Sequence record: MT682709.1
Length of the DNA: 64,000 bases
Source: Escherichia phage vB_EcoM_SP1
Reading direction: 5' to 3' (one strand)
Part shown: in pieces, positions 1 through 54,923 of the stretch
How positions within the stretch are numbered: position 1 is the stretch's first letter
Layout: the number at the start of each line of letters is the position of its first letter
Made by a program: the position numbers and the translations under genes
Notes under the pieces: generated by a model
The model's database searches: none
What the model was told of the DNA's origin: nothing
Seen by the model: only the letters and a program-made list of their open reading frames with translations

Positions 1-264
<264 letters not shown>

Positions 265-276
265 TTTCACAAAGTT

Positions 277-306
277 ATTTACACGGGGTTTTAGTAGTGA
301 TACTAT
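277..306 (+). promoter_or_regulatory. T4-type early promoter
   Basis: ATTTACA -35 (277-283), 17-bp spacer, TACTAT -10 (301-306), upstream of ATG 343. Confidence 0.5.
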
Positions 307-342
307 TACCCTATCAAAACAAATGAGTGATTGGAGAATAAA

Positions 343-615
343 ATGAAAACATTTAAAGAATTTATCAATGAAGCTACTTTTAACGAAAAAGTAAAAATTA
401 GCAAAGCTGTCAAGACTTTGATTGCTGACATCAATTACCTATATGATATTGATTTAACTGACTATGTAACAGTTGGTAACAAACGTAACTTTTTCGTGTT
501 TGACATCTCTGAACTTGACCAGAATCAAATTAACAACATTGAGCGTTTTGCTAATGATAAGGGTCTTCGTCATGAGTCAGCGGGTTATAAAAAATACGCA
601 ATTTATTTAAAATGA
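343..615 (+). CDS. internal-protein-like (capsid-targeting leader MKTFKEFINEA)
   Basis: ATG 343 after GGAGAA RBS (track ORF begins at in-frame TTG 331); N-terminus matches the IP leader consensus. Confidence 0.65.
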   Translation: MKTFKEFINEATFNEKVKISKAVKTLIADINYLYDIDLTDYVTVGNKRNFFVFDISELDQNQINNIERFANDKGLRHESAGYKKYAIYLK

Positions 616-648
616 GTTTACTTTTAAATAGGGTTGTGGTACTATTAT
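616..648 (+). promoter_or_regulatory. T4-type early promoter
   Basis: GTTTAC 616-621, GGTACTATTAT -10 region 638-648. Confidence 0.5.
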
Positions 649-675
649 CTCATCAAAATTAATTAGGAAAATAAA

Positions 676-984
676 ATGAAAACATTTAAAGAATTTATCA
701 ATGAAGCGGCTGCACCAAAGACATTCGTTATTAATACTCAGACGAGTCTTGACGATGAGTATGCAGAGGCAATTCTGAAGTCACTTGCTAAGAACGGCGT
801 TGAAGTAATCGCCTCGGACTTTAAGAAAGGGGCTTCCGAGATGTTTATTTCTATAACTAAAGGATCTAAAGCTAAAATCAAATCATCATTCGGTGTTGCT
901 CGTACCGATCAAATCGACAATCATGACTTTAAACAAACTGGTGTTAAACGGCAGAACACAATTGCATCACGCGGAATAAAATAG
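676..984 (+). CDS. internal-protein-like (leader MKTFKEFINEA), cargo unrelated to 343..615
   Basis: ATG 676 with RBS; first 11 aa identical to the preceding gene, remainder different. Confidence 0.65.
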   Translation: MKTFKEFINEAAAPKTFVINTQTSLDDEYAEAILKSLAKNGVEVIASDFKKGASEMFISITKGSKAKIKSSFGVARTDQIDNHDFKQTGVKRQNTIASRGIK

Positions 985-994
985 TTTATAAACC

Positions 995-1026
995 GTTTAC
1001 TTTTCGATGGGGTAGTGATATTATTA
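995..1026 (+). promoter_or_regulatory. T4-type early promoter
   Basis: GTTTAC 995-1000, GATATTATTA -10 region 1017-1026. Confidence 0.5.
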
Positions 1027-1052
1027 CCCTATCAACTACTGAGGAGAATAAA

Positions 1053-1235
1053 ATGAAACGTTGTGAATTAATTCGAAATGTTGCTATTGCAATTTCTGCT
1101 TCCGCTTTTAGTTTTTCAATGTTTGTTGGATTTATATGCGGATTATTAACTACAGCAGAAAATGTGTTTTCACTTGTAGTAGCATTTTTAATTGGTTTAA
1201 TTGCTATCGTTATGGATAAAATTTCTAAAGGTTAA
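1053..1235 (+). CDS. small hydrophobic membrane protein
   Basis: ATG with GAGGAGAA RBS; 60 aa, mostly hydrophobic. Confidence 0.55.
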   Translation: MKRCELIRNVAIAISASAFSFSMFVGFICGLLTTAENVFSLVVAFLIGLIAIVMDKISKG

Positions 1236-1237
1236 TA

Positions 1238-1525
1238 ATGATTCTTTATGCGAAAGTATCGTCCGTTGAAAATGGATATAAATATGATCAAGATGCGGCT
1301 AAAGCCTTGATTGATGATTATGGCATTTTAACATGTTTTGAAGTTGAAAAGGTTTACATTGACCGTTCATCTTCTCAAGTTAAATTAGTAAAGGAAGACC
1401 GTAAATTTAATACAGTAAATTTTGATTTCTTTATCGAAACAGAAAAAGGTCCTCTTGAATATGATATTTTCAAGAATCCTTTGGGTCTTGAATGCATCGT
1501 AAACATGTATTATCATAAATGGTAA
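1238..1525 (+). CDS. hypothetical protein (95 aa)
   Basis: ORF adjacent to previous stop (TAATG). Confidence 0.5.
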   Translation: MILYAKVSSVENGYKYDQDAAKALIDDYGILTCFEVEKVYIDRSSSQVKLVKEDRKFNTVNFDFFIETEKGPLEYDIFKNPLGLECIVNMYYHKW

Positions 1526-1622
1526 ATATGCTTTAAGAATTATTTGTTATTATTAACTCATATCGCACTGATTAATACCCTCTATCATCAAGGGTTCTTG
1601 CTTGAGAGCCTTTGTTAATAAT

Positions 1623-1695
1623 TGGGAATTAGCCAAGTTGGTAAGGCACTGGATTTTGATTCCAGGATGCAAAGGTTCGAGTCCTTTATTCCCAG
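1623..1695 (+). tRNA. tRNA-Gln (anticodon UUG)
   Basis: Acceptor stem TGGGAAT/ATTCCCA, anticodon loop TTTTGAT, T-arm GGTTCGAGTCC. Confidence 0.85.
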
Positions 1696-1696
1696 C

Positions 1697-1783
1697 GCGA
1701 GAATGGTCAAATTGGTAAAGGCACAGCACTTAAAATGCTGCGGAATGATTTCCTTGTGGGTTCGAGTCCCACTTCTCGCACCA
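1697..1783 (+). tRNA. tRNA-Leu (anticodon UAA), class II, CCA encoded
   Basis: Acceptor GCGAGAA/TTCTCGC, anticodon loop CTTAAAA, long variable arm, CCA 1781-1783. Confidence 0.85.
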
Positions 1784-1788
1784 AATTT

Positions 1789-1862
<74 letters not shown>

Positions 1863-1872
1863 ATTTAATTTA

Positions 1873-1946
1873 CTCCGTGTAGCTCAGTTTGGTAGAGCGC
1901 CTGATTTGGGATCAGGAGGTCCAAGGTTCAAATCCTTGTATGGAGA
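1873..1946 (+). tRNA. tRNA-Pro (anticodon UGG)
   Basis: Acceptor CTCCGTG/TATGGAG with G-U pairs, anticodon loop TTTGGGA, T-arm CAAGGTTCAAATCCTTG. Confidence 0.8.
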
Positions 1947-1948
1947 CT

Positions 1949-2038
1949 GGAGGCGTGGCAGAGTGGTTTAATGCACCGGTCTTGAAAACCGGCAGTCGCT
2001 CCGGCGACTCATAGGTTCAAATCCTATCGCCTCCGCCA
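1949..2038 (+). tRNA. tRNA-Ser (anticodon UGA), class II, CCA encoded
   Basis: Acceptor GGAGGCG/CGCCTCC, anticodon loop CTTGAAA, long variable arm. Confidence 0.85.
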
Positions 2039-2043
2039 GTTTT

Positions 2044-2119
2044 GTTGATTTAGCTCAGTAGGTAGAGCACCTCACTTGTAATGAGGACGTCGGCGGTTCG
2101 ATTCCGTCAATCAGCACCA
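2044..2119 (+). tRNA. tRNA-Thr (anticodon UGU)
   Basis: Acceptor GTTGATT/AATCAGC, anticodon loop CTTGTAA, CCA encoded. Confidence 0.85.
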
Positions 2120-2120
2120 A

Positions 2121-2195
2121 GGCCCTGTAGCTGGAAGGTTCAAGCAAGCGACTCATAATCGCCAGATGGTGGTTCAATTCCACCCAGGGCCACCA
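2121..2195 (+). tRNA. tRNA-Ile (anticodon CAU, lysidine type as in T4) or Met
   Basis: Acceptor GGCCCTG/CAGGGCC, anticodon loop CTCATAA, CCA encoded. Confidence 0.75.
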
Positions 2196-2204
2196 AATTA
2201 ATTT

Positions 2205-2291
2205 GGGGAGTTATCCCGTAGAGGTAGCGGTGTGGACTGTAAATCCATTGTCATTGCGACTCGGGTGGTTCGACTCCATCACTCCCCACCA
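2205..2291 (+). tRNA. tRNA-Tyr (anticodon GUA), class II
   Basis: Acceptor GGGGAGT/ACTCCCC, anticodon loop CTGTAAA, long variable arm; architecture resembles E. coli tRNA-Tyr. Confidence 0.75.
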
Positions 2292-2295
2292 ATTT

Positions 2296-2370
2296 GGATG
2301 TGTAGCTCAATGGCAGAGCGATCGCCTGTTAAGCGATTGGTTATAGGTTCGAATCCTATCACGTCCGCCA
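2296..2370 (+). tRNA. tRNA-Asn (anticodon GUU)
   Basis: Acceptor GGATGTG/CACGTCC, anticodon stem ATCGC/GCGAT with loop CTGTTAA, T-arm ATAGGTTCGAATCCTAT. Confidence 0.75.
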
Positions 2371-2374
2371 AATC

Positions 2375-2450
2375 CGAGGCATAGCTCAGAAGGAAGAGCA
2401 AGGACCTTCTAAGTCCTAGGTCGTAGGTTCGATCCCTACTGCCTCGACCA
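2375..2450 (+). tRNA. tRNA-Arg (anticodon UCU)
   Basis: Acceptor CGAGGCA/TGCCTCG, anticodon stem AGGAC/GTCCT with loop CTTCTAA, CCA encoded. Confidence 0.85.
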
Positions 2451-2466
2451 ATTAAGTGAGGAAAAT

Positions 2467-2817
2467 ATGAAAGGTAATGTTTATTTAGTAGTTCATGATT
2501 TAACATTCTATTTTAATCATAATGACACTGTTATTTCTGAACGTGTAATTAATTTACTTTATCAGCATGCAGATTATGTTTATGTCGAAAACGAATACGG
2601 TCATTGGCAATTTCTCAAAAATCGTTCATTTGGTTTAGATGGTTACGAATACTTTGAACGTAAAGACCTTTTAGATAAAATTCCATTATCTACACAATAT
2701 CAAAATCACAAGTCTTTATATAAATGCCGTCCAATTCGAAATGCTGAATCTGCGTATGAAGTAATTGATTTATGGCGTAAACGTCGTGGACAGGTTGATG
2801 CTTTAAAAGAATACTAA
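2467..2817 (+). CDS. hypothetical protein (116 aa) between tRNA-Arg and the stable-RNA region
   Basis: ATG 2467 after GAGGAAAAT RBS. Confidence 0.55.
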   Translation: MKGNVYLVVHDLTFYFNHNDTVISERVINLLYQHADYVYVENEYGHWQFLKNRSFGLDGYEYFERKDLLDKIPLSTQYQNHKSLYKCRPIRNAESAYEVIDLWRKRRGQVDALKEY

Positions 2818-2821
2818 GAAA

Positions 2822-3123
2822 CCGGGTCGCTACCGGTAAGTCGTCGGACTGATGTTCCCTGGAGTATAGTTTCTCCCACAGTTTTACTGTGTTCTGATTC
2901 TTTACTATCACAGCAGAAACGGCGCACCAAATTATCGATTCGAGGAAATATCTTTGCCGTAAGCCGAGTAGCGTTTTTGACGGAACGTTCGGATATGGTC
3001 GAGATATGGCCTTTTAAAAATATTGAGTAGCGTCAACTACTTAATAACCGGGTTCAAATCCCGGCGTTTCGTACAAACACTTGCCTTAGCAGGTGGAACC
3101 CCGACAAGGTTGCCGCAAGGCTT
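2822..3123 (+). ncRNA. candidate stable small RNA region (T4 species 1/2 RNA-like), contains a tRNA-like T-arm
   Basis: GC-rich, no convincing ORF; CCGGGTTCAAATCCCGG T-arm-like hairpin; possible acceptor pairing CGGAACG/CGTTTCG; ends at a strong terminator. Confidence 0.35.
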
Positions 3124-3151
3124 AGCCCCAGCCGAAAGGTTGGGGCTTTTT
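3124..3151 (+). terminator. rho-independent terminator
   Basis: AGCCCCAGCC-GAAA-GGTTGGGGCT hairpin followed by TTTTT. Confidence 0.65.
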
Positions 3152-3241
3152 AGTTTGAATCACTCGGATAACGCTGTTACGGATAATAACAAAGTAATAA
3201 ATAATTAATAACCAACTGATAGATTATTTCAAGGATTTTAA

Positions 3242-3805
3242 ATGAAAACTTATGCCGAATTTTTAACCGAAGCAGCAAAATTACCATCTGAAGCAGATCT
3301 TACTAAAGTATTCTTTCAATTAGACCCAAAAGACCGTGGCGATTTTCTTAAGTGGAAAGCTAAAGCTATTGAAATGTATAACATCGATAATAGTTCTTTT
3401 ACGATGAGTCAAGAAAATAAATTCAATAAAGCATTTTTCAAAATTTCTAAGAAATTGGCATCTGGCGCTCAGGTTCCTAAATCTGCATTAGCTACTCCTG
3501 AACGTGCACCTGTTAAAATTTCTAAGAATATGTTCGACACTAAAAAATACGTTAATGCTTTGAATAAAGCTCTTGATGCATTGGATGATGCAAAGAAGGC
3601 AGCCCGTGATCTTCAAGACGTGTACACTGATTTTGATCGTAAAACTAAAGGTTCTATTTCAAATAGCGAACGTAATAGTGTAAGTGTTTATTCTGATAGC
3701 CTTGATGTTCTTGGCGATGCGTATACTGAAATTAAAAATCGTATTAACACCGCATCTAAGCTAAAAGCTGCCGCAGAAGCTATAATAACTAAACTGGATA
3801 AATAA
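3242..3805 (+). CDS. internal-protein-like protein with capsid-targeting leader (MKTYAEFLTEAA), 187 aa
   Basis: ATG 3242 with AAGGA RBS; IP-type leader then Lys/Ala-rich helical cargo. Confidence 0.6.
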   Translation: MKTYAEFLTEAAKLPSEADLTKVFFQLDPKDRGDFLKWKAKAIEMYNIDNSSFTMSQENKFNKAFFKISKKLASGAQVPKSALATPERAPVKISKNMFDTKKYVNALNKALDALDDAKKAARDLQDVYTDFDRKTKGSISNSERNSVSVYSDSLDVLGDAYTEIKNRINTASKLKAAAEAIITKLDK

Positions 3806-3811
3806 TTTTAA

Positions 3812-3838
3812 AGCCCTATCTAAATGATAGGGCTTTTT
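3812..3838 (+). terminator. rho-independent terminator
   Basis: AGCCCTATC-TAAAT-GATAGGGCT hairpin plus T-run. Confidence 0.65.
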
Positions 3839-3951
3839 GGTATCTCGGCCTTTCTGGACCTCTCTAGGCATCATTTAGTTTCTACCCTTTATAATATATT
3901 ATCCTATCCTTTAATTGCCCCTTCCATCCCTAGAATTCCCTAAAACTTTTT

Positions 3952-4047
3952 AAAAATTTTTTCACAAAACTGTTTACATCCCTGTTCTTCCATGGTACTA
4001 TATCAATATCAACTACTGATACAGAAAACAACTTGGAGAATGAAATG
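3952..4047 (+). repeat. dispersed early promoter-leader cassette, copy A
   Basis: TTTTCACAAAACTGTTTACATCCCTGTTCTTCCATGGTACTATA... is near-identical to 47485-47570 and similar to 20150-20235 and 21605-21665; GTTTAC 3972-3977, TACTAT 3996-4001. Confidence 0.6.
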
Positions 4048-4308
4048 GATAATTACGGCGAACTGTTCAACTTCTTTATGAAATGCGTTTCAGAAGATTT
4101 CGGTCGTACAGTTAATGATATTAAAGTTATCGGTCCTGACCATCCGATGTTTGAAACTTACGCAGTAATGGGTAATGAAGACGGTCAGTGGTATACTGTA
4201 AAAGTTGTGATTAACATGTTCACTGCTGAAGGTTATGTTAAACTGTCTTCTAAAGTTTACCATGATAACGACGAAATCGCAGAAGAATATTTCAATAATA
4301 TGAAATAA
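4045..4308 (+). CDS. hypothetical acidic protein (87 aa)
   Basis: ATG 4045 after GGAGAA (track ORF starts at in-frame TTG 4033). Confidence 0.55.
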   Translation: MDNYGELFNFFMKCVSEDFGRTVNDIKVIGPDHPMFETYAVMGNEDGQWYTVKVVINMFTAEGYVKLSSKVYHDNDEIAEEYFNNMK

Positions 4309-7627: not shown

Positions 7628-8430
<803 letters not shown>

Positions 8431-8431
8431 T

Positions 8432-8462
8432 GTTTACTTCCTCCAAGGACTTTGATACTATA
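8432..8462 (+). promoter_or_regulatory. T4-type early promoter
   Basis: GTTTAC 8432-8437, GATACTAT -10 region. Confidence 0.5.
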
Positions 8463-8488
8463 CATTCATCAACTACTTGGAGGAAATT

Positions 8489-8902
8489 ATGACTCGTATC
8501 AATTTAACACTTGTTTCTGAACTGACCGACCAACATCTTATGGCTGAGTATCGTGAATTACCACGCGTATTTGGTGCAGTCCGTAAACATGTTCAAAACG
8601 GTAAACGTGTAAAGGATTTTAAAATCTCTCCAACATTTATCTTAGGCACAGGTCACGTAACATTCTTTTACGACAAACTCGAATTTTTACGTTTACGTCA
8701 AATCGAGCTAATCGCTGAATGCTTGAAACGTGGTTTCAAAATCAAGGACACGACTGTCCAGGATATTTCCGACATCCCTGTCGAATTTCGTAATAATTAT
8801 GTCCCGTCCGAAGCGTCCATTGCGATAAGTCAAGCTCGCTTAGATGAAAAAATTGCTCAACGCCCTACTTGGTACAAATACTATGGTAAATCAATTTACT
8901 AA
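8489..8902 (+). CDS. denV: endonuclease V (pyrimidine-dimer DNA glycosylase)
   Basis: [31 protein letters not shown]... matches recalled T4 endo V over its full length; ATG 8489 (track begins at TTG 8477). Confidence 0.9.
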
Positions 8903-8908
8903 GGAAAA

Positions 8909-9169
8909 ATGAAAATGTATCAAGAATTTATCGCTGAAGCAGATGCCAAAGGCCCCAAATTTAAAGTTAAAGCTTTCGTTGGTGATGCAGAAGATTTTGG
9001 CTCATTAAAACGTAATGGGTATTCTTTCCTAGGCGGCGATGGTAGAGAAATAAACACCTATGCAAAACGTAGTGAAATTGCTTATGTTGTAGCAAGCCCT
9101 AAAGTAGATGTTGACGATATTGGATATGATTTTAACAACTTCGGAATTATTTCTGGCGGTAAAGCTTAA
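8909..9169 (+). CDS. internal-protein-like (leader MKMYQEFIAEA), 86 aa
   Basis: ATG with AAGGAAAA RBS; IP-type leader. Confidence 0.65.
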   Translation: MKMYQEFIAEADAKGPKFKVKAFVGDAEDFGSLKRNGYSFLGGDGREINTYAKRSEIAYVVASPKVDVDDIGYDFNNFGIISGGKA

Positions 9170-9172
9170 ACA

Positions 9173-9202
9173 GTTTACGCTTAAGTATTAATATGATATA
9201 AT
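9173..9202 (+). promoter_or_regulatory. T4-type early promoter
   Basis: GTTTAC 9173-9178, TATAAT 9197-9202. Confidence 0.5.
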
Positions 9203-9232
9203 TACTCTATCAAAACAAACAAGGAAACAAAA

Positions 9233-9811
9233 ATGAAAACGTATCAAGAATTTATTGCTGAAGCTTCTGTAGTAAAGGCAAAAGGCATTAATAAGGACGA
9301 GTGGAACTATCGTGGTGGAAACGGCTTTGACCCTAAAACTGCTCCACTTGAACGATATCTAGCCACAAAAGCTTCTGATTTTAAAGCCTTCGCTTGGGAA
9401 GGACTTCGCTGGCGTAACGATCTAAATATTGAAGTTGACGGACTTAAATTTGCTCATATTGAAGATGTTGTTGCTAGTAACTTAGATGCAGCTTTTGTTA
9501 AAGCCGACAGTGATCTTCGTCGCTGGAATTTAAAACTGTTCTCTAAACAAAAAGGCCCGAAGTTTGTGCCTAAAGCCGGTAAATGGGTCATTGATAATAA
9601 ATTAGCTAAGGCTGTCAACTACGCTGGTCTTGAATTCGCCAAGCACAAATCATCATGGAAAGGTCTTGATGCAATGGCTTTCCGTAAAGAATTTGCCGAT
9701 GTTATGGCTAAAGGCGGCTTTAAGGCAGAAATAGATACCTCTAAAGGTACGTTTAAGGACGCTAATGTTCAGTACGCTTATGCCGTTGCTAATGCAGCCC
9801 GTGGTAATTAA
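9233..9811 (+). CDS. ipIII: internal protein III
   Basis: MKTYQEFIAEASVVKAKGINKDEW... near-identical to recalled T4 IPIII. Confidence 0.9.
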   Translation: MKTYQEFIAEASVVKAKGINKDEWNYRGGNGFDPKTAPLERYLATKASDFKAFAWEGLRWRNDLNIEVDGLKFAHIEDVVASNLDAAFVKADSDLRRWNLKLFSKQKGPKFVPKAGKWVIDNKLAKAVNYAGLEFAKHKSSWKGLDAMAFRKEFADVMAKGGFKAEIDTSKGTFKDANVQYAYAVANAARGN

Positions 9812-9852
9812 TAAGGCCTAAGTATAGGCCTATTTACATTTAAAGGAAACAT

Positions 9853-10155
9853 ATGAAAACATATCAAGAATTTATTACTGAAGCGCGAGTGAGTGCAGGT
9901 AAATTAGAAGCCGCTATAAATAAAAAGGCCCATTCATTTCACGATTTGTCCGATAAAGACCGTAAGAAACTTGTAAGCCTTTATATTGACAAAGAGCGTA
10001 TTCTCGCTCTTCCTGGCGCTAATGAAGGTAAACAGGCCAAGCCTTTGAATGCTGTCGAAAAGAAAATTGATAACTTTGCTTCTAAATTCGGTATGTCTAT
10101 GGATGACCTTCAGCAAGCGGCTATCGAAGCAGCTAAAGTAATTAAAGGTAAATAA
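9853..10155 (+). CDS. ipII: internal protein II
   Basis: MKTYQEFITEARVSAGKLEAAINKKAHSFHDL... near-identical to recalled T4 IPII. Confidence 0.9.
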   Translation: MKTYQEFITEARVSAGKLEAAINKKAHSFHDLSDKDRKKLVSLYIDKERILALPGANEGKQAKPLNAVEKKIDNFASKFGMSMDDLQQAAIEAAKVIKGK

Positions 10156-36754: not shown

Positions 36755-37957
36755 ATGAAAGTATGTATTTTTATGGCTCGAGGTCTTGAAGGTTGTGGTG
36801 TAACTAAATTTTCTCTTGAGCAACGTGATTGGTTTATTAAAAATGGTCATGAAGTAACTTTGGTTTATGCTAAAGATAAATCATTTACTCGTAATTGCGC
36901 ACATGATTATAAGTCATTTTCAATTCCGGTTTTATTGGCAAAAGAATACGATAAAACACTTAAGCTGGTAAATGATTGTGATATTCTAGTTATCAATTCA
37001 GTTCCTGCTACTTCAGTCGAAGAAGACACGATTAATAACTATAAAAAAATTATTGATAACATTAAACCTTCGGTTCGTGTTGTAGTTTATCAACATGACC
37101 ATTCTTCTCTTTCTTTGCGTCGAAATTTGGGATTAGAAGAAACTGTTCGTCGGGCTGATGTTATTTTTAGCCATTCTGATAATGGTGATTTTAATAAAGT
37201 TCTGATGAAAGAATGGTATCCAGAAACTGTTTCTCTGTTTGATGATATTGAAGAAGCGCCGACCGTATATAACTTTCAGCCTCCTATGGATATTGCGAAG
37301 GTTCGATCAACCTACTGGAAAGATGTTTCTGAAATTAACATGAATATCAACCGTTGGATTGGTCGTACGACTACATGGAAAGGTTTTTATCAGATGTTTG
37401 ATTTTCATGAAAAACATCTTAAACCTGCAGGACTAAGTACTATTATGGAAGGTCTGGAACGTTCTCCAGCGTTCATTCCTATTAAAGAAAAAGGAATTCC
37501 ATACGAGTATTATCGTCTTCATCAAGTAGACCAAATTAAAATTGCTCCTAATTTGCCAACGCAAATTCTTGACCGTTATGTAAATAGCGAAATGCTTGAA
37601 CGTATGAGTAAATCCGGATTTGGTTATCAGCTGAGTAAGTTGGACAAAAAATATCTACAACGTTCTTTAGAATATACTCATCTCGAGCTTGGTGCATGTG
37701 GAACAATTCCGGTATTTTGGAAATCTACGGGCGAAAATTTAAAATTCCGTATTGATAACACTCCATTAATTTCTCATGATAGCGGTATCATTTGGTTTGA
37801 TGAAAATGATATGGAATCAACATTTGAACGTATTAAAGAACTGTCATCTGACCGAGCTCTTTATGACCGTGAGCGAGAAAAAGCATATGAATTTTTGTAT
37901 CAGCATCAAGATTCAAGCTTCTGCTTTAAAGAACAGTTTGACATTATTACAAAATAA
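36755..37957 (+). CDS. agt: DNA alpha-glucosyltransferase
   Basis: 400 aa; MKVCIFMARGLEGCGVTKFSLEQRDWFIKNGHEVTLVYAKDKSF... highly similar to recalled T4 alpha-gt. Confidence 0.9.
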   Translation: MKVCIFMARGLEGCGVTKFSLEQRDWFIKNGHEVTLVYAKDKSFTRNCAHDYKSFSIPVLLAKEYDKTLKLVNDCDILVINSVPATSVEEDTINNYKKIIDNIKPSVRVVVYQHDHSSLSLRRNLGLEETVRRADVIFSHSDNGDFNKVLMKEWYPETVSLFDDIEEAPTVYNFQPPMDIAKVRSTYWKDVSEINMNINRWIGRTTTWKGFYQMFDFHEKHLKPAGLSTIMEGLERSPAFIPIKEKGIPYEYYRLHQVDQIKIAPNLPTQILDRYVNSEMLERMSKSGFGYQLSKLDKKYLQRSLEYTHLELGACGTIPVFWKSTGENLKFRIDNTPLISHDSGIIWFDENDMESTFERIKELSSDRALYDREREKAYEFLYQHQDSSFCFKEQFDIITK

Positions 37958-48360: not shown

Positions 48361-49101
48361 ATGATTAATGACTCTATGACAGTTGAAGAAACCCGTCTTC
48401 ATTTGGGAATTGCATTAAAGGAAAAAGATTTCGTAGTTGATAAAACTGGTGTTAAAACTATTGAAATTATTGGCGCATCATTTGTAGCAGATGAACCTTT
48501 TATTTTTGGTGCTCTTAATGATGAATACATTCAACGTGAACTTGAATGGTATAAATCTAAAAGTTTGTTTGTTAAAGATATTCCAGGCGAAACGCCAAAG
48601 ATTTGGCAACAGGTAGCATCTTCTAAAGGTGAAATTAACTCGAATTATGGTTGGGCTATCTGGTCAGAAGATAACTATGCCCAGTATGATATGTGTTTAG
48701 CTGAACTTGGTCAAAATCCTGATTCTCGCCGCGGTATCATGATTTATACTCGTCCATCCATGCAGTTTGACTACAACAAAGATGGTATGTCAGATTTCAT
48801 GTGTACGAATACAGTACAGTACCTGATTCGTGATAAGAAAGTCAATGCAGTAGTAAGCATGCGTTCAAATGACGTGGTCTTTGGATTCCGTAATGATTAT
48901 GCATGGCAAAAATACGTACTAGATAAATTAGTATCTGATTTGAATGCAGGTGATTCAACTCGTCAGTATAAAGCAGGTTCCATTATATGGAATGTTGGAA
49001 GCCTTCATGTGTATTCTCGTCATTTTTATTTGGTTGACCATTGGTGGAAAACTGGCGAAACTCATATTGCGAAAAAAGATTATAACGGTGAGTGGAAATG
49101 A
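48361..49101 (+). CDS. 42: dCMP hydroxymethylase gp42
   Basis: 246 aa; thymidylate-synthase-like fold; position as T4 gene 42. Confidence 0.9.
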   Translation: MINDSMTVEETRLHLGIALKEKDFVVDKTGVKTIEIIGASFVADEPFIFGALNDEYIQRELEWYKSKSLFVKDIPGETPKIWQQVASSKGEINSNYGWAIWSEDNYAQYDMCLAELGQNPDSRRGIMIYTRPSMQFDYNKDGMSDFMCTNTVQYLIRDKKVNAVVSMRSNDVVFGFRNDYAWQKYVLDKLVSDLNAGDSTRQYKAGSIIWNVGSLHVYSRHFYLVDHWWKTGETHIAKKDYNGEWK

Positions 49102-49940
49102 TTCAATTCGTAATTCCAAGCTATCAACGCGTAGGGGCAGTTTCTGCCCTTGATATGTTTCCGACTGATTATGAACCTCATATTGTAGTACGTGAACACG
49201 AAGAAAAAGCTTATTATGACGCTTACGGGTCTAGAGCTAAAATTGTAGTTATTCCCGATGATGTAAATGGAATTGCTGGAACTCGTAAAGCAATTACTGA
49301 TATGTATGCAGGTCAACGAATTTGGATGATCGATGATGATACTACTATTCGTATGAGTTCAATGCGAAAGAAAGATGATCGTCGCTGCGTAGATAAAATT
49401 AATCAATTAACTCGTGAACAGTTCTATGAATTGATTCAATACGTTGAAGATGCCATGGATTGCGGGTATTATCATGGCCATGCTCGTCTACCTATTTTTA
49501 AAATTACTTCATCTTGGGGTAATTATCGTGAAAATTCATATGGATTCACGAATACATGGTATGACCTTGGAAAACTTACAACAGAACAAATTGGGTATGG
49601 AAAAATTGATTTATGCGAAGATATGTATGCATTTCTCAATTTAATTAATCAAGGTTATCCGCATTTGGCCTTGTTCAAATATCTGGTTGTATCCGGAAAA
49701 GCACAAGCCCCCGGTGGATGTAGTTCAATTCGTAGCAATTCTAAACATAATAGAGCGCTTGAGCAAATCAATAGAGAATTTCCAGAGCAAGCTCGTTGGA
49801 AAACATCGAATATTGAAAAGAGAAAATCGTTGGGTGAAGAAGATGAGCCATTAAAGGTTCTTCGCATGTGTGTTTCGCGCAAAGAAAAATCAGAAGCGTT
49901 TCATAAGTTTAATGCTATTCATCCAATAGTAGTTGATTAA
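49098..49940 (+). CDS. putative GT-A fold glycosyltransferase (DxD motif) at the T4 beta-gt position
   Basis: 280 aa from ATG 49098 (ATGA overlap with gene 42); WMIDDDTT motif; not similar to recalled T4 beta-gt. Confidence 0.6.
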   Translation: MIQFVIPSYQRVGAVSALDMFPTDYEPHIVVREHEEKAYYDAYGSRAKIVVIPDDVNGIAGTRKAITDMYAGQRIWMIDDDTTIRMSSMRKKDDRRCVDKINQLTREQFYELIQYVEDAMDCGYYHGHARLPIFKITSSWGNYRENSYGFTNTWYDLGKLTTEQIGYGKIDLCEDMYAFLNLINQGYPHLALFKYLVVSGKAQAPGGCSSIRSNSKHNRALEQINREFPEQARWKTSNIEKRKSLGEEDEPLKVLRMCVSRKEKSEAFHKFNAIHPIVVD

Positions 49941-53837: not shown

Positions 53838-54131
53838 ATGAAAAAATTTGTTTTTGCTGCAATTTTTGCTTTAGCTTCTTGCGCTGCTCAGCCTGCTATG
53901 GCAGGTTATGATAAAGATTTGTGCGAATGGTCTATGACTGCAGATCAGACTGAGGTTGAAACTCAGATTGAAGCAGATATTATGAATATCGTTGAGCGTG
54001 ATCGCCCTGAAATGAAAGCTAAAGTACAAAAACAGCTTAAGTCTGGTGGTGTAATGCAGTATAATTATGTTCTGTATTGCGATAAAAACTTCAATAATAA
54101 AAATATCATCGCTGAAGTGGTAGGTGAATAA
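53838..54131 (+). CDS. sp: spackle periplasmic protein Sp
   Basis: 97 aa with signal peptide; MKKFVFAAIFALASCAAQPAMAGYDKDLCEWSMTADQ... matches recalled T4 Sp. Confidence 0.8.
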   Translation: MKKFVFAAIFALASCAAQPAMAGYDKDLCEWSMTADQTEVETQIEADIMNIVERDRPEMKAKVQKQLKSGGVMQYNYVLYCDKNFNNKNIIAEVVGE

Positions 54132-54757
54132 TGCTTTATCAAATGCACAAGTGCAAAGACACGTACAAATATAAAGGTGCCCAGTGTTATATCATTAATC
54201 GTGAAAACGCAGGTCCAGGTCATTCGCATCAATCAAGATTTGTATTTGTTAAAAATAATGAAATTATAGCAGTTGCTAATTACGTGCTTGTGACTAGTGA
54301 TGTTAATCCGGTGCCTTTTACATATTATAATCTAATGGACTTGGCGTACGATTATAATTGGTTTAATCGTGACACTTTGGCTCATATCGAAGGCGTAGGA
54401 TTTGACATCTCTTACTCTAGTTACTCGTTGTGTCCTATGAGCCGAGCTCATAAAGAGCCTGAATATTTTTCATTTCGGCGGCGCGTAGACTTTAAACGCA
54501 GCACAGAGTATATTGGTGGAATCTTTGTTAAAGATAATCGAATTACTCGCATTATTTATCCTTTGGGTTGTGGTCAAAAAGATATTGATGTTGATTTAGA
54601 CTTTACTGAAAACATCATTAATCATATTGCTTCTGTGTATTTTGATATTGATCACAAAATTGTAATATGCGGATATGAATTACCATCGGAAAAACAGTTT
54701 AAAGTAAAAGTTTCTATTGATGACCAAATTTTTAATGCTTTTATGAATAGAGGTTAA
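54131..54757 (+). CDS. hypothetical protein (208 aa)
   Basis: ATG overlapping sp stop. Confidence 0.6.
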   Translation: MLYQMHKCKDTYKYKGAQCYIINRENAGPGHSHQSRFVFVKNNEIIAVANYVLVTSDVNPVPFTYYNLMDLAYDYNWFNRDTLAHIEGVGFDISYSSYSLCPMSRAHKEPEYFSFRRRVDFKRSTEYIGGIFVKDNRITRIIYPLGCGQKDIDVDLDFTENIINHIASVYFDIDHKIVICGYELPSEKQFKVKVSIDDQIFNAFMNRG

Positions 54758-54758
54758 T

Positions 54759-54923
54759 ATGAAAACATATAAAGAATTTATTAAAGAAGATATGGTAGCT
54801 GGAGATTCAGGTGGTAATCCTGAAAATATCTCTACTGGAACAACGTCAGGCGCTGTAGTAAATAAAGGTCCTGAACAGATTCCTAAAAAGAAAAAAGAGG
54901 AATCTAAAGAAAAAGAAGAGTAA
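54759..54923 (+). CDS. small internal-protein-like peptide with capsid-targeting leader (MKTYKEFIKED), 54 aa
   Basis: ATG 54759 right after previous stop, ends 3 nt before the gene 61 ATG; Gly/Lys-rich tail; below ORF-track cutoff. Confidence 0.5.
   Translation: MKTYKEFIKEDMVAGDSGGNPENISTGTTSGAVVNKGPEQIPKKKKEESKEKEE

Follow-up and report, generated by a model that had tools for sequence, protein, structure and literature searches.

Near the left end of the analysed DNA, two adjacent genes encode proteins that start with the same eleven residues, MKTFKEFINEA, and continue without any resemblance to each other. The arrangement raises the questions of what the two proteins are, what they may do during infection, and how unrelated sequences came to share one leader. 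The analysis covered a stretch of 64,000 nucleotides from Escherichia phage vB_EcoM_SP1 (MT682709.1), referred to as the window. The window is of a Tequatrovirus: its first 3.9 kb are 97.9% identical to phage IME340 and match more than 1,100 T4-like records, and the complete genomes closest to the window are those of ordinary Tequatroviruses. The head-gene cluster lies outside the 64-kb window. The positions of the features are listed in Table 1.

Table 1. Features of the window and of related phages discussed in the text. Positions refer to the window, except where they are preceded by L006, L007 or L008.
Feature	Position	Strand	Basis
57B (Acb1, anti-CBASS phosphodiesterase), 3' end, directly upstream of ip9	1..264	+	Pfam PF23474 3.5e-34; phrog_755
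Early-type promoter-like box before ip9 (TTTACA, 17 nt, TACTAT; TG upstream)	278..306	+	T4 early consensus scan
Repeat copy 1 (Shine-Dalgarno, ATG, ip9 leader codons 1-10 and 2 bases of codon 11)	333..374	+	Alignment
ip9, internal head protein Ip9, 90 aa	343..615	+	Identity to RB15/RB32 Ip9; phrog_7673; AF2
Early-type promoter-like box before ip7 (TTTACT, 17 nt, TACTAT)	617..645	+	Read from sequence
Repeat copy 2 (Shine-Dalgarno, ATG, ip7 leader codons 1-10 and 2 bases of codon 11)	666..707	+	Alignment
ip7, internal head protein Ip7, 102 aa	676..984	+	Identity to RB15/T2 Ip7; phrog_2667; AF2
Early-type promoter-like box before tRNA.4 homolog; right-hand flank repeat copy	996..1024	+	Consensus scan
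tRNA.4 homolog, 60-aa membrane-like ORF	1053..1235	+	phrog_1692; annotated tRNA.4 in RB32, MX01, T2
tRNA cluster, 10 genes	1623..2450	+	ARAGORN
187-aa ORF, leader MKTYAEFLTEA, L-T-E|A site, just 3' of tRNA cluster	3242..3805	+	phrog_2280
Leader-tagged ORF, 93 aa, denV-region locus	8149..8430	+	phrog_3499 internal head protein
Leader-tagged ORF, 86 aa, MKMYQEFIAEA, denV-region locus	8909..9169	+	
IPIII-like ORF, 192 aa, denV-region locus	9233..9811	+	
IPII-like ORF, 100 aa, denV-region locus	9853..10155	+	
Alpha-glucosyltransferase	36755..37957		
TAGT-like glycosyltransferase, 282 aa, after dCMP hydroxymethylase	49092..49940	+	PF20691 4e-10
AdfA (anti-DarT factor, 61.2 homolog), adjoining the 54-aa ORF	54131..54757	+	
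54-aa ORF, MKTYKEFIKED start, low-complexity Lys/Glu-rich tail	54759..54923	+	phrog_1823, unknown function
Leaderless Ip9-domain homolog, Kagunavirus JSSK01	L006 3007..3225		
Leaderless Ip9-domain homolog, Seuratvirus KS_S4	L007 2992..3216		
Ip9 domain as C-terminus of 660-aa protein, Agtrevirus SKML-39 (Ackermannviridae)	L008 1279..3261		

The pair consists of ip9 and ip7. The product of the first is 94% identical to Ip9 of phage RB32 and 92% identical to that of RB15, and the product of the second is 99% identical to Ip7 of both RB15 and T2. Both proteins match PHROG families annotated as 'internal head protein' (Ip9 with an E-value of 1e-54 and Ip7 with 5e-41). The original prediction, made from the letters of the sequence, classified both reading frames as internal proteins, which is confirmed by the orthology of their products to Ip9 and Ip7. 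Both proteins had already been named. The ratios dN/dS of the mature parts, calculated against the orthologs from Dhakavirus MX01, are 0.04 for Ip9 and 0.16 for Ip7; purifying selection thus acts on both genes, and both are genuine.

Predicted mature Ip9 comprises residues 11-90 (80 aa, 9.3 kDa, pI 8.2), and predicted mature Ip7 residues 11-102 (92 aa, 9.9 kDa, pI 9.65), with the leaders, residues 1-10, encoded at positions 343-372 and 676-705, respectively. BLASTP did not find a local alignment of mature Ip9 with mature Ip7 even at E<=100. The AF2 model of Ip9 is confident (pLDDT 85.7) and has an a-b-b-a-b-b domain, whereas in that of Ip7 (pLDDT 68.8) a disordered tail follows a ferredoxin-like core with the topology b-a-b-b-a-(b). 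The complete divergence behind an identical leader, which had been proposed earlier, thus holds for both the sequences after residue 11 and the predicted topologies. The models were less useful as guides to a target, as the structural neighbours of the mature domains were generic a/b-sandwich proteins, none of them informative. Scans of Ip9 and Ip7 against Pfam and NCBIfam gave nothing above threshold, and the best hit in sequence-profile searches of the PDB had an E-value of 0.26. The single significant match of Ip9 in a Foldseek search of BFVD is a 535-aa unnamed viral protein, and the others are noise. An exhaustive HMMER search, with Ip7 as the query and 1.84 billion representatives as the target, returned only three clusters (50% identity), all of them Ip7-family proteins with the leader or fragments, and neither a remote homolog nor a leaderless form. 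The basic C-terminal tail of Ip7, HDFKQTGVKRQNTIASRGIK (residues 83-102, positions 922..981), is predicted to be disordered with pLDDT<50. It is nearly invariant across the family, and its RQNTI core is retained even in the 54%-identical protein P0059. The tail is a candidate linear binding motif.

The position of the pair is that of ipI in T4. On its left, the ipI locus is flanked by the conserved gene 57B, which is the neighbour in T4, T2, RB32, and MX01 as well, and on its right by the likewise conserved tRNA.4 homolog. The earlier placement of the genes at the ipI position upstream of the tRNA cluster is correct because the interval between 57B and tRNA.4 holds ipI in T4, where the gene order is 57B-ipI-tRNA.4. 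The tRNA cluster of the window consists of genes for Gln, Leu, Gly, Pro, Ser, Thr, Met-CAT, Tyr, Asn, and Arg and lacks segB, whereas the T4 cluster contains eight genes and is interrupted by the segB homing endonuclease gene.

The occupants of the 57B-tRNA.4 interval vary among phages. RB15, whose locus was deposited in 1994, has the order 57B-ip5-ip9-ip7-ip8-tRNA.4, with both Ip9 and Ip7 included. The same interval contains ip5-ip7 in T2, ip5-ip9-ip7 in RB32, ipI-ip7 in P922, ip9-ip7-ip8 in G4498, ip5-ip6 in Bas37, and ip9-ip7 in MX01. The window shares with RB15 and RB32 the proteins, the succession of ip9 and ip7, and the locus, but differs from them in the lack of ip5, so that ip9 follows 57B directly, as in IME340 and MX01. 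The order 57B-ip9-ip7-tRNA.4 occurs in about 50 phage records, including that of MX01 (the ip9-ip7 segment was counted in 50 phage records at a coverage of >=80%), and the annotation of RB32 notes a 43-bp direct repeat that flanks the pair. The ip9-ip7 pair is already known, as the RB32 annotation, these records, and the order in MX01 demonstrate, and many genomes carry annotations of these very alleles. The combination of a conserved leader and exchangeable cargo at the ipI locus belongs to textbook T4 biology and was reportedly described in 1994. It is highly probable that ip9 and ip7 are interchangeable cassettes for T-even internal head proteins, inserted between 57B and tRNA.4 in place of ipI or beside it.

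The shared leader resembles the capsid-targeting sequences (CTS) of T4 internal proteins. According to the summary in PMC9026906, residues 1-10 of T4 IPIII, MKTYQEFIAE, are sufficient for capsid targeting (Mullaney & Black 1996), residues 4 and 7 are important for targeting, as are residues 8 and 10 for processing, and the prohead protease gp21 cleaves after the Glu of L/I-x-E. The CTS of IPIII and IPII and the leader of the window have in common a length of ten residues, an aromatic residue at position 4, Phe7, Ile8, Glu10, and the gp21 site. The leader MKTFKEFINE retains all four determinants, F4 (as in T4 IpI), F7, I8, and E10, and differs from the IPIII/IPII sequence by the three substitutions Y4F, Q5K, and A9N; targeting by this variant is predicted. 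Both proteins contain the motif of a gp21-type site, I-N-E10|A11. By analogy with T4, the leader would dock Ip9 and Ip7 to the prohead's scaffolding core and would be removed by gp21 after Glu10, and the mature, mildly basic proteins of approximately 9-10 kDa would stay with the DNA in the head and enter the cell with it. Packaging, processing, and injection of Ip9 and Ip7 are thus presumed from the T4 precedent. A search of the accessible literature yielded no direct report of Ip7 or Ip9 in virions or of their processing. The canonical late promoter TATAAATA is absent upstream of ip9 and ip7. Because early-type boxes are the only ones there, the supply of the two proteins at the time of prohead assembly would have to be as in T4.

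The functional precedent is T4 IpI (IPI*), an injected inhibitor of the GmrSD of E. coli CT596 that has its gene at the same locus. IpI resembles Ip9 and Ip7 in its MKTFKEF start, in a propeptide that ends with I-x-E|A (ITE|A), in its compact a/b domain, and in a mature size of ~76-92 aa. However, its propeptide has 19 residues rather than ten, and its mature part is not similar to either protein. Ip1, Ip2, and Ip3 inhibit GmrSD enzymes, a different one in each case (PMC12373910). The leader-tagged protein bas37_0260 from the ipI locus of Bas37 is an inhibitor of McrBC (HIDEN-SEQ preprint 10.1101/2025.11.20.689424); it was located in the record of this phage, also named KarlGJung (MZ501089), and its translation identifies it as Ip6. 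Ip6 is, like Ip9 and Ip7, a small CTS-tagged protein from this locus of a Tequatrovirus. It was considered as a possible equivalent of Ip7 or Ip9 and rejected, since its mature part is unrelated to both and the window does not contain ip6. The mature parts of Ip7 and Ip9 have no similarity to Ip1 and Ip6 beyond the leader. All four internal proteins with an assigned function, Ip1, Ip2, Ip3, and Ip6, inhibit type IV restriction.

The window encodes a dCMP hydroxymethylase, an alpha-glucosyltransferase, and a TAGT-like glycosyltransferase, and the phage therefore has DNA of the kind that type IV nucleases attack. In T4, the gene after that for dCMP hydroxymethylase encodes beta-glucosyltransferase, whereas the window has the TAGT-like gene in this position. 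Together with the alpha-glucosyltransferase gene, this suggests a pattern of hmC glycosylation different from that of T4.

The chances are slightly better than even that Ip7 and Ip9 each neutralise a first-line host defence, with each mature protein binding and blocking one specific system. A type IV, modification-dependent nuclease would be the most likely target, because the DNA contains glucosylated hmC and the four characterised internal proteins act in this way. In the published GmrSD panel, ip4-10 gave no reproducible inhibition, and an apparent hit of ip7 against CLS_011 did not repeat. Phage T2 carries Ip5 and an Ip7 that is 99% identical to that of the window, and T2 is restricted by GmrSD-ECOR21 and GmrSD-ECOR17 (PMC12373910). 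None of the GmrSD variants tried so far is a target of Ip7 or Ip9. A literature search for a function of Ip7 or Ip9 returned nothing relevant. The proposal that the two proteins, encoded at the swap-prone ipI locus, are injected effectors with a host-defence target is supported in part, and an anti-defence role would be a reasonable analogy. As Ip1, Ip2, Ip3, and Ip6 each disable a different type IV enzyme, Ip7 and Ip9 are reasonable probes for further defence variants, although the window gives no special leverage on the question of their targets.

The strongest alternative is a mainly structural or DNA-condensing role of Ip7 and Ip9 as fillers of the head, which would serve assembly, charge neutralisation, or ejection, as has been proposed for part of the role of IPIII, and have no specific host target. 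The mildly basic pI values of the mature proteins and the contacts of internal-protein lysines with DNA phosphates would suit such a role, but the presence of the genes is polymorphic among near-identical phages, which fits a dispensable and host-specific function. T4 IPIII mutants assemble heads more slowly and give smaller bursts, and the GmrSD panel gave no target for ip7 or ip9; against this stand the exclusively anti-defence functions of the four internal proteins that are understood, the strong purifying selection on compact folded domains, and the existence of the Ip9 domain without a packaging signal in siphophages. A predominantly structural role is therefore unlikely, and inhibition of a host defence remains the preferred reading.

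The Ip9 domain has relatives outside the T4-like phages. Stand-alone homologs of 72-74 aa are encoded in Kagunavirus (JSSK01 gene 64) and Seuratvirus (KS_S4), with 44-50% identity over residues 17-90, in blocks of small uncharacterised genes. They do not have a hidden leader, because in-frame stop codons are located just upstream of their starts. It is possible, though tentative, that the Ip9 cargo (residues ~20-90) is a cross-family module that is injected in T4-like phages, leaderless in Kagunavirus and Seuratvirus, and a C-terminal domain in Agtrevirus. If so, the defence or host factor that Ip9 targets would not be specific to glucosyl-hmC DNA, and Ip9 would be a cytoplasmic counter-defence gene made injectable by recombination behind the leader module. 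The leaderless homologs imply that the domain can work inside the cell and suggest a target that is not necessarily specific to glucosyl-hmC DNA. They are a modest new point, which widens the range of plausible targets, provides a natural leaderless control, and illustrates the principle of 'leader plus any cargo'. The N-terminus of the 660-aa protein of SKML-39 (MATPSFLNFLEES...) has a loose likeness to a targeting leader.

The siphophage homologs also lend themselves to the reading that Ip9 is chiefly a newly made early protein of the cytoplasm and that its leader is incidental. The early-type box upstream of ip9, the lack of a late promoter consensus, and the stop codons that delimit the stand-alone homologs can all be accommodated in this way. 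What makes it very improbable is that, in every T4-like Ip9 retrieved, the leader has kept the four determinant positions and the I-x-E site despite the rapid turnover of leaders. Furthermore, T4 IPIII is active both when packaged and when supplied without the CTS, and cytoplasmic activity is therefore no argument against packaging. Delivery of Ip9 from the head thus remains the favoured explanation.

The common leader is part of a longer repeated module. The two 42-nt blocks that extend from the Shine-Dalgarno sequence into codon 11 are identical in 41 of 42 positions. Each cassette at the locus has a module of ~80 nt, which consists of a stop codon, an early-type promoter (GTTTAC-17-TAnTAT), GGAGAATAAAATG, and the start of the leader. 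Ahead of ip9, ip7, and tRNA.4 there are boxes of the form GTTTAC, 17 nt, TAnTAT, which are conserved across phages. The ip7 box scores 8/12, slightly below the threshold of the scan, and is in register with the flagged boxes. A scan for terminators (positions 200-4100) did not detect a stem-loop in the intergenic segments 265-342, 616-675, and 985-1052. The ~80-nt module lends itself readily to homologous exchange and probably serves as the recombination substrate of the cassettes.

Comparison with related phages indicates the history of the leader. In RB15 and RB32, the Ip9 leader is MKTYQEFISEA and the Ip7 leader is MKTFKEFINEA, whereas both leaders of the window are of the latter type, and the Ip7 leader of P922 is MKTYQEFINEA. 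At least seven leader variants precede near-identical Ip9 cargos in databases. Leaders are swapped independently of cargo. Of the nine nucleotide differences between ip9 of the window and that of RB32, seven are within the first 34 nt; the first 33 nt contain six of them, as opposed to three in the other 237 nt (Fisher p=1.4e-4), and at all six the window has the base of the ip7 leader. Because the differences cluster in the leader and match ip7, the identity of the two leaders is secondary and not ancestral. The ip9 leader in the lineage of the window probably acquired the ip7-type bases, most simply by conversion. Of 98 records that match a 46-nt query covering the Shine-Dalgarno sequence and leader (window 333-378), only ~17 contain it twice per genome. 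A recent tandem duplication followed by divergence beyond recognition, which the adjacency and common orientation of the genes, the nearly identical 5' blocks, and the similar upstream boxes might suggest, is rejected, because the mature parts are dissimilar and differ in the order of secondary structure elements, each cargo has its own orthologs with other leaders, RB15 and RB32 carry the same cargos under two different leaders, and the leader-concentrated differences from RB32 ip9 match ip7.

Exchange of leaders and cargos as cassettes has a parallel in the promoter-early stem-loop (PeSL) cassettes. These and the modular shuffling of T4-like genomes were reportedly described by Arbiol in 2010. 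The conserved early-promoter repeats that flank exchangeable small genes at the ip9-ip7 locus resemble PeSL cassettes, but the three intergenic modules lack a stem-loop or terminator, and their homology reaches into the coding sequence of the leader. PeSL cassettes bring about the shuffling of modules in T4-like genomes (Comeau 2014, PMC4122927), and the authors themselves connect the shuffling to the IP locus (PMC4122927).

The window contains eight ORFs with a CTS-like leader in all. All 164 Tequatrovirus records with the 187-aa ORF beyond the tRNA cluster (for example, RB14ncORF136c) name it only 'hypothetical protein', and its PHROG family is labelled 'unknown function'; from its leader and cleavage motif, it may be an unrecognised internal protein. 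Four leader-tagged ORFs constitute a second internal-protein locus around denV (8149..10155, + strand). The 86-aa ORF of this locus matches the Ip7 PHROG, but was rejected as an Ip7 paralog since its pairwise BLASTP comparison with Ip7 was not significant. The start of the 54-aa ORF is CTS-like, except that Asp follows the Glu; the ORF is conserved in 1,228 T4-like records. The 342-aa ORF next to it has no Pfam match and is taken to be the primase gene because of its size and position. Anti-defence genes are located near two of the regions discussed, that for Acb1 (57B) beside ip9 and that for AdfA beside the 54-aa ORF. The 77-aa 'ip7 protein' of Escherichia phage OLB35 is a chimera of Ip7 residues ~28-72 and Ip9 residues ~57-90, apparently a product of deletion or recombination between cassettes in the order ip7 then ip9.
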